DNA of 21,539 nucleotides from a virus (taxonomy: Duplodnaviria; Heunggongvirae; Uroviricota; Caudoviricetes), in the IMG/VR virus record IMGVR_UViG_2565956714_000006, positions 1 through 21,539 of that record. The stretch is one strand, 5' to 3'. Positions 1,445 through 2,640 of this stretch are shown piece by piece. The notes below the pieces were generated by a model. That model was not told the origin of the DNA, searched no databases, and saw only the letters and a list, made by a program, of their open reading frames with translations. A program made the translations under genes and the position numbers. Position 1 is the first letter of the stretch, and each line of letters starts with the position of its first letter.

Positions 1445-2640
1445 GGAAGGTGCGAACAAGTCCCTGATATGAGATCATGTTTGTCATCTGGAGCCATAGA
1501 ACAGGGTTCATCATGAGTCATCAACTTACCTTCGCCGACAGTGAATTCAGCAGTAAGCGCCGTCAGACCAGAAAAGAGATTTTCTTGTCCCGCATGGAGC
1601 AGATTCTGCCATGGCAAAACATGGTGGAAGTCATCGAGCCGTTTTACCCCAAGGCTGGTAATGGCCGGCGACCTTATCCGCTGGAAACCATGCTACGCAT
1701 TCACTGCATGCAGCATTGGTACAACCTGAGCGATGGCGCGATGGAAGATGCTCTGTACGAAATCGCCTCCATGCGTCTGTTTGCCCGGTTATCCCTGGAT
1801 AGCGCCTTGCCGGACCGCACCACCATCATGAATTTCCGCCACCTGCTGGAGCAGCATCAACTGGCCCGCCAATTGTTCAAGACCATCAATCGCTGGCTGG
1901 CCGAAGCAGGCGTCATGATGACTCAAGGCACCTTGGTCGATGCCACCATCATTGAGGCACCCAGCTCGACCAAGAACAAAGAGCAGCAACGCGATCCGGA
2001 GATGCATCAGACCAAGAAAGGCAATCAGTGGCACTTTGGCATGAAGGCCCACATTGGTGTCGATGCCAAGAGTGGCCTGACCCACAGCCTGGTCACCACC
2101 GCGGCCAACGAGCATGACCTCAATCAGCTGGGTAATCTGCTGCATGGAGAGGAGCAATTTGTCTCAGCCGATGCCGGCTACCAAGGAGCGCCACAGCGCG
2201 AGGAGCTGGCCGAGGTGGATGTGGACTGGCTGATCGCCGAGCGTCCCGGCAAGGTAAAAACCTTGAAGCAGCATCCGCGCAAGAACAAAACGGCCATCAA
2301 CATCGAATACATGAAAGCCAGCATCCGTGCCAGGGTGGAGCACCCGTTTCGCATCATCAAGCGGCAGTTCGGCTTCGTGAAAGCCAGATACAAGGGGCTG
2401 CTGAAAAACGATAACCAACTGGCGATGTTATTCACCCTGGCCAACCTGTTTCGGGTGGACCAAATGATACGTCAGTGGGAGAGATCTCAGTAAAAACCGG
2501 AAATAACGCCAGAAATGGTGGAAAAAATAGCCTAAATAGGCTGATTCGATGTGTTTGCGGGAAAAAAATCGGCCCAGATCCGCGAAATTTTAATCAGCGA
2601 GTCAGCTTGGGAAGAAATGACCTGCTTATTCGCACCTTCC
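1445..2640 (+). mobile_element. IS5-family insertion sequence (IS5 variant), about 1.2 kb, boundaries +/-1 bp
   Basis: Terminal inverted repeats GGAAGGTGCGAACAAG (1445-1460) and CTTATTCGCACCTTCC (2625-2640) bracket an InsH-type transposase. Flanking 4-mers are CTAG (left) and TTAA (right): both fit the YTAR target but do not match. Confidence 0.9.
1477..2493 (+). CDS. insH: IS5 transposase InsH (338 aa from first ATG; canonical 326-aa form starts at [12 protein letters not shown], nt 1513)
   Basis: Near-identical over its length to the E. coli IS5 InsH sequence as recalled, with a few substitutions ([20 protein letters not shown]). Confidence 0.95.

Follow-up and report, generated by a model that had tools for sequence, protein, structure and literature searches.

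An insertion sequence (IS) in an argW-integrated prophage of E. coli was found to sit, very probably, at the junction of a 3508-bp IS-mediated deletion by which the prophage lost an EpsG-family gene and its tailspike gene. The IS lies in a 21,539-nucleotide stretch of DNA (positions 1–21,539 of IMG/VR virus record IMGVR_UViG_2565956714_000006; hereafter, the window). Since the two sequences that flank the IS are native sites located 3508 bp apart in relatives that lack it, the IS marks a deletion junction and not a simple insertion.

The argW prophage and its insertion sequence

The window is the int-proximal half of an argW-integrated Sf6/P22-like (Lederbergvirus) prophage of E. coli, with P22-type late genes and an integrase beside argW (Table 1). 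Immediately upstream of int, the source scaffold carries argW, a tRNA-Arg gene that contains the Sf6-type att core CTGCAGGGGACACCAT. On the minus strand beyond the gp16-type gene, homologues of gp20, gp7, gp14, gp26, gp10 and gp4 were followed by the coat, scaffold and portal genes and, past the portal gene, by genes for the large terminase, an Sf6-type small terminase, Rz, holin and Q. Window positions 2641–5000 shared 96.4% identity with Shigella phage Sf6. The gene order of Sf6 is attP-int-oac-tailspike-gp13, and Sf6 and the Sf6-like argW prophages share the order int, conversion gene, tailspike gene, gp13/gp16-type gene and late genes, as well as the att core. Sf6 carries oac where the relatives of the window carry an EpsG-family gene, whereas the prophage in the window has neither a conversion gene nor a tailspike gene. 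Its gp16-type gene is now the last late gene before the IS, which occupies the place of the tailspike gene downstream of it.

The tract between int and the IS is part of a low-GC module (31–38% GC; window 1177–1444 and positions 9445–12952 of the relative L014), whose start lies within the 3′ end of intS. Other IntS genes are homologous only up to approximately position 1176, which leaves IntS here with 404 aa instead of 385 aa. The module consists of the 67-aa open reading frame (ORF), the EpsG-family (Wzy-like) gene at the position of oac in Sf6, and the tailspike gene, and it was also found behind 385-aa integrases (L034, L038). Window positions 1150–1444 had no match among phage records, even when searched in distant mode, and the module around these positions is known only from prophages. 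The source scaffold ends 260 bp past window position 21539, in the nin region. The early half of the argW prophage lies off this scaffold and is presumably common to a second P22-like element in the same assembly, described below.

Table 1. Features of the window and of the second tailspike locus. Positions are those of the window unless another sequence is named; a slash within a sequence marks the point at which the IS is joined in the window.
Feature	Position	Strand	Remarks
Prophage integrase IntS, 404 aa	1–1215	+	argW tRNA-Arg gene and att core just upstream
Remaining 5′ portion of the conversion and tailspike module, AT-rich (33.6% GC)	1177–1444		
67-aa ORF	1216–1419	-	Also in IS-free relatives
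Left flank CTAG	1441–1444		Native single-copy YTAR site; left deletion end point; native site in 24 fetched loci
Intact IS5-family insertion sequence	1445–2640	+	1196 bp; IS5/ISKpn26 mosaic lineage, as judged by alignment
Left terminal inverted repeat (IRL)	1445–1460	+	GGAAGGTGCGAACAAG
Transposase ORF, 338 aa	1477–2493	+	Intact; annotated 326-aa form starts at ATG 1513
218-bp stretch common to IS5 and ISKpn26	1969–2186	+	Holds the single switch point
Right terminal inverted repeat (IRR)	2625–2640	+	CTTATTCGCACCTTCC
Right flank TTAA	2641–2644		Native single-copy YTAR site; right deletion end point; Sf6, L014 and L017 read GATTTG/TTAA
Remnant (88 bp) of the 164-bp spacer that separated the gp16-like gene from the lost tailspike gene	2641–2728	-	
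P22 gp16/Sf6 gp13-type DNA transfer (ejection) protein, 665 aa	2729–4726	-	PF26808
Tailspike gene of the second P22-like element	6001–8067 of KE705262.1 (GCA_000457305.1; L032)		Junction at approximately 8209

The first-pass annotation of the window had placed an IS with the non-identical flanks CTAG and TTAA at positions 1445–2640, and these coordinates proved to be exact. The ends were fixed by alignment to the canonical IS5 in P1 mod749::IS5, an annotated element with CTAA on both sides, and by the IS-free relatives, in which homology to the window ended exactly at 1444 and restarted exactly at 2641. The terminal inverted repeats matched each other at 15 of 16 positions, were the same as those of IS5 (J01735) and conformed to the 16-bp GGAAGGTGCGAA(C/T)AAG repeat of the IS5 group. 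The length and the coding content of the element were likewise those of the group (approximately 1.2 kb with a single DDE transposase of 326/338 aa), and the Pfam domains DDE_Tnp_1 and DUF772 (PF01609, PF05598) were detected in the identical transposase gene of L007. The IS is intact and looks competent for transposition. A promoter and terminator scan of window positions 1150–2800 returned nothing above the shuffled expectation.

Both flanks fit the YTAR target of IS5 and differ at two positions, as the annotation had also observed; these are positions 1 and 4. While the IS5 copy in P1 has a CTAA duplication, no 4-bp target duplication of the YTAR type made by IS5 was found around the window IS after exact end mapping; an identical direct repeat is what the annotation had named as evidence against its own reading. 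In the region of a relative that is homologous, 61 YTAR sites were counted in 3825 bp, or approximately 1 per 63 positions, and the chance of both flanks being YTAR was estimated from this as approximately 2.5e-4. That both junctions are YTAR argues that the transposase chose both sites.

The element had been named IS5 in the annotation, which holds for its family and for its left 524 bp, which are IS5-type, but not for the right part from IS position 743, which is ISKpn26-type. Judged by alignment to both elements, it is not a canonical IS5, and it represents an IS5/ISKpn26 mosaic lineage rather than an IS5 that has drifted. The likeness to canonical IS5 (J01735; P1 mod749::IS5 and the K-12 copies) comprises the terminal repeats, IS positions 1–742, the YTAR preference and the one DDE transposase, in which three of the 338 residues differ from canonical InsH (R261→K, A327→V and H338→Q, in 338-aa numbering). 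All three residues (K261, V327 and Q338) are ISKpn26-type. The few transposase substitutions mentioned in the annotation were therefore literally correct, but they understated the 50 DNA differences from J01735. These were all located at IS positions 743–1180, in the right 40% of the element, and mostly in its non-coding right end. The identity to IS5 was 95.8% overall and 100% at IS positions 1–742, but fell far below this over the final 150 bp, in which the window IS was the same as ISKpn26. The last 241 bp were 100% identical to ISKpn26 on thousands of plasmids.

Compared with ISKpn26, for which the annotated copy in E. coli B18271 and not the ISfinder entry served as the reference, the window IS had 56 differences. 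All were located at IS positions 18–524, within the left 524 bp in which it matches IS5, and no site differed from IS position 525 rightward. In a three-way alignment, 56 of 56 informative sites at positions 18–524 were IS5-type and 50 of 50 at positions 743–1180 were ISKpn26-type, with zero changes private to the window IS. The last IS5-type site was at window position 1968 and the first ISKpn26-type site at 2187. The window IS is thus equally close to both named elements, and with 1196 bp it has the length of ISKpn26, compared with 1195 bp for canonical IS5. ISKpn26, also a member of the IS5 family, is known for the disruption of mgrB in Klebsiella (PMC8796155).

IS-free relatives and the missing segment

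Relatives in which both IntS and the gp16-type protein are identical to those of the window, but without an IS between the two genes, were found by exact-protein look-ups. In L014 (GCA_016114005.1), window positions 1–1444 matched at 1444 of 1444 positions and the chromosome upstream at 8000 of 8000, and from window position 2641 onward there were zero mismatches over 3981 bp. L014 and L017 were collinear with the window on both sides of the IS and contained extra DNA between the flanks. In both, the sequence is GGTTACTAG/TTGATTTT on the left and GATTTG/TTAACTATGAG on the right. The CTAG and TTAA sites were each present once in L014 and L017, as native target-type sites without a duplication, at the two ends of the 3508 bp (L014 9445–12952), and the flanking DNA was identical to that of the window. 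The first site was located 225 bp downstream of the intS stop codon and 162 bp upstream of the start of the EpsG-family gene, the second 88 bp downstream of the gp16 stop codon and 76 bp upstream of the tailspike start codon (ATG). The intervening DNA had a GC content of 34.8% and contained the EpsG-family gene (PF14897) and a convergent 688-aa tailspike gene with a PF09008 head-binding domain. A search for this segment in the window gave no match. The 67-aa ORF was followed by the EpsG-family gene and the tailspike gene in 10 of 10 places among the matches listed for that ORF. The only sequences in which the IS junctions were seen are scaffold KE705263.1 of the source assembly (GCA_000457305.1), with 100% identity to the window over 12,726 bp, and a Logan contig of SRR785531, which apparently represents the source strain.

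The comparison with an IS-free relative, which the annotation had recommended, thus gave a clean answer in favour of a deletion, and its preference for an adjacent deletion or recombination between two IS copies over a simple insertion was supported by the single-copy flanks of L014 and L017. The deletion, its end points and the native state of both YTAR sites are directly visible in these relatives, as is the intact IS in the window. The further proposal that the IS caused the loss of the tailspike was correct for the tailspike of the argW prophage; the EpsG-family gene was lost along with it, and a near-identical tailspike gene remains on another scaffold of the source assembly (KE705262.1). 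The annotation had also suggested a search for other IS5 copies with reciprocal half-sites. A deletion leaves no such half-sites elsewhere in the genome, so this search is uninformative.

L014 is closely related to the window prophage without being its literal ancestor, because the late genes differ from approximately window position 6620, with 97.6% identity further into this region. The divergence of L014 and L005 from this position, in the gp7 region, was abrupt; the coat, scaffold and portal genes were different, and there was no alignment beyond 9310. This pattern shows that head genes have been exchanged, in a mosaic manner, among very close prophages that occupy one site.

Members of the same argW prophage family have decayed independently via IS1. 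In E. coli A23 (L003/L013), an IS1 interrupted the tailspike gene at its 5′ end and all DNA from there to dsdC was missing, and in L015 an IS1 directly followed the EpsG-family gene. Both remnants keep int and the EpsG-family gene, opposite to the window, where the EpsG-family gene was lost and the late genes were kept.

Routes to the junction and alternative explanations

The ancestral prophage would have had the order argW-intS-(67-aa ORF)-EpsG-family gene-tailspike-gp16-late genes. We infer that the transposase acted at two native YTAR sites, CTAG after intS and TTAA in the spacer between gp16 and the tailspike gene, and that the DNA between them was lost, which would leave one native half-site on each side of the IS and no duplication. 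The order of events and the route are likewise reconstructed. In one route, a simple insertion at one site would have been followed by intramolecular transposition into the other (adjacent deletion). In the other route, two insertions in direct repeat would have been followed by homologous recombination. Both give the identical product, CTAG-IS-TTAA, from which the sequence cannot separate them. We lean to adjacent deletion, since it needs fewer events, and regard it as somewhat better than an even chance among IS-mediated deletions; recombination between two IS copies is a serious candidate within the same class, at somewhat less than an even chance.

The literature supports this class of event. 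In mutation-accumulation lines of E. coli, no IS is more active than IS5: its insertions duplicate YTAR and favour sites a few kb or less from a copy already present, and about half of the IS-junction deletions, mostly of 1–3 kb, are due to it, more than to any other source (PMC5009759). Missing duplications usually stem from adjacent deletion or IS–IS recombination (PMC11708052). The IS5-junction deletions in mutation-accumulation and long-term lines (Lee et al. 2016, PMC5009759; Ngan et al. 2024, PMC11708052) resemble the window in that a single IS is left without a duplication, kilobases between nearby YTAR sites are removed, and the same two routes are candidates. The window differs from these laboratory deletions in that it stems from a natural isolate, that a phage host-range and conversion module was lost, and that the IS is a mosaic. 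The adjacent deletions of IS903, another member of the IS5 family, correspond to the first route: cointegrate-type intramolecular transposition keeps the IS and removes the flank up to the new target (PMC11708052). The experimental demonstration of adjacent deletion concerns IS903, not IS5 or ISKpn26.

Intermediates, that is, the IS at CTAG or at TTAA with a matching duplication, were sought in several collections. The exact junction patterns were absent from genome and metagenome contigs, a chimeric junction query found no place covering at least 80% of the query in 5,426 complete E. coli genomes, and intermediates were also not found among the fetched loci or the 10 listed places with the 67-aa ORF. 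These missing intermediates are weak evidence, because the prophage variant is rare in the databases; the left flank was present in just 2 of the 5,426 complete genomes.

The lack of a duplication and of an intermediate in any collection searched would also fit an event in one step. A single transposition may have joined the IS ends to the two YTAR sites 3.5 kb apart, which we consider unlikely; that the chimera was born at the locus is less likely than this. Taken as a whole, an account in which the two IS ends were inserted in one step into sites 3.5 kb apart, or in which the IS was captured at a double-strand gap, is quite improbable, although this has been proposed for events without duplications of IS5-family elements and IS481, and events of this kind are described (PMC11708052). 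Capture at a random break predicts arbitrary junctions, whereas both observed junctions are YTAR, and non-concerted integration of two ends is undocumented for IS5; the rarity of the prophage variant also takes weight from the absent intermediates. If true, joining in one step would be a transposase-directed version of the deletion-without-duplication events that are unexplained by the standard routes (Ngan et al. 2024).

The mosaic structure raises the question of a crossover at the locus itself, in which an IS5 at CTAG recombined with an ISKpn26 at TTAA within the 218-bp common stretch and made the deletion and the chimera at once. Such a crossover predicts that the IS5-type part adjoins CTAG and the ISKpn26-type part adjoins TTAA, as was observed, and it agrees with the window IS being a perfect single-switch chimera with no private change, and with the absence of a 100% identical copy from the 5,426 complete E. 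coli genomes. However, the same switch interval was present in seven of seven related copies examined, at six distinct loci and with private mutations of their own (E. coli B18271, AW1.7, TOK-001, AREA_C483 and TC24 at one locus, ABW_S38 and L6-21). The copy in B18271 had one difference from the window IS (99.9% identity). Several E. coli strains carried the mosaic lineage, on chromosomes and on plasmids, a separate RefSeq protein exists for its transposase (WP_021823611.1), and the copy in TOK-001, between ais and arnB, was surrounded by a perfect CTAA duplication, the only one among the seven sister copies. The same switch interval elsewhere and the duplication in TOK-001 mean that the chimerism is no evidence for a local crossover, which we regard as very improbable, and the chimeric IS was rejected as proof of one. 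The mosaic is an established mobile lineage that predates the event in the window and arrived there as such. With CTAA on both sides of the TOK-001 copy, the absent duplication in the window reflects the history of this copy and not a property of the element.

Among the sister copies (L024, L026 and L028–L031), three loci had flanks that were alike except for the base adjoining IRL, with CTAT/CTAA in AW1.7 and in AREA_C483/TC24 (two copies, one locus) and TTAA/TTAG in L6-21. The remaining flanks were CTTG/CTTA in ABW_S38 and CTCC/TTAG in B18271. Candidate explanations for the near-matching flanks are decayed duplications, rearrangements or an effect of cleavage at the left end.

A second tailspike gene in the source assembly bears on whether the junction could be an artefact, with two IS copies flanking an intact EpsG-tailspike segment that the short-read assembler skipped when it collapsed the copies. 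A search with the L014 tailspike protein led to a cluster whose representative bears the name of E. coli HVH 91 (4-4638751). This exact tailspike was encoded only on source scaffold KE705262.1 (25.7 kb) and on a Logan contig of SRR785531. It differed from the L014 tailspike by one residue (T661K), with 3 mismatches in 2224 bp of DNA. Upstream of the gene, KE705262.1 carries Arc, an immI-like region with Ant-like, repressor-like and SieA genes, an element of the IS3 family and a gp16 of 605 aa. On the downstream side, the match to L014 ended right after the tailspike terminator hairpin, where the sequence was fused to the xis-proximal arm at a point that falls approximately 22 bp short of the core of att. 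Neither this core nor int nor the EpsG-family gene was present in the surroundings of this tailspike gene. Relocation of the deleted segment was rejected as its source, since the context differs on both sides and the gene is thus that of a second phage. KE705262.1 thus carries a second P22-like element and not the excised segment. Tandem, nested or episomal maintenance of this element are options.

The source is indeed a scaffold-level short-read assembly, in which the scaffold end 260 bp past the window shows repeat-induced breaks, and a tailspike gene does exist elsewhere in it. A misassembly is nevertheless highly improbable, even more so than a local crossover. The other tailspike gene has different DNA on both sides and lacks both L014 12892–12952 and the EpsG flank. 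The independent Logan contig of SRR785531 with this tailspike (L033) was unbranched through it, and the window contains no N. The reads thus contain a single tailspike context, and this speaks against a misassembly by repeat collapse at the window locus. Reads that run from the IS into CTAGTTGATT, or from GATTTGTTAA into the IS, would be the signature of two IS copies or a misassembly.

Finally, a simple insertion with a 4-bp duplication that point mutations later eroded, suggested by both flanks still being YTAR, is ruled out by the transposase having chosen both sites, was also refuted by the comparison with the IS-free relatives and is practically excluded: the flanks are 3508 bp apart and not adjacent there, and the flanking DNA, 100% identical over 1444 and 3981 bp, shows no mutational decay.

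Consequences for the prophage

The phenomenon, an IS-mediated deletion in a prophage, is a textbook one and already known; it reveals no new mechanism and opens no new question. The window provides a clean natural example of prophage decay by an insertion sequence, and illustrates how a deletion can be diagnosed from flanks that do not match. For annotation, the prophage should be called defective and the IS labelled an IS5/ISKpn26 mosaic. A single small event removed exactly a two-gene host-interaction module, the O-antigen gene and the matching tailspike gene, and left the rest of the late operon intact. As a result, the argW prophage can supply neither its own tailspike nor an EpsG-type O-antigen function, but the near-identical tailspike of the second P22-like element could complement it in trans.
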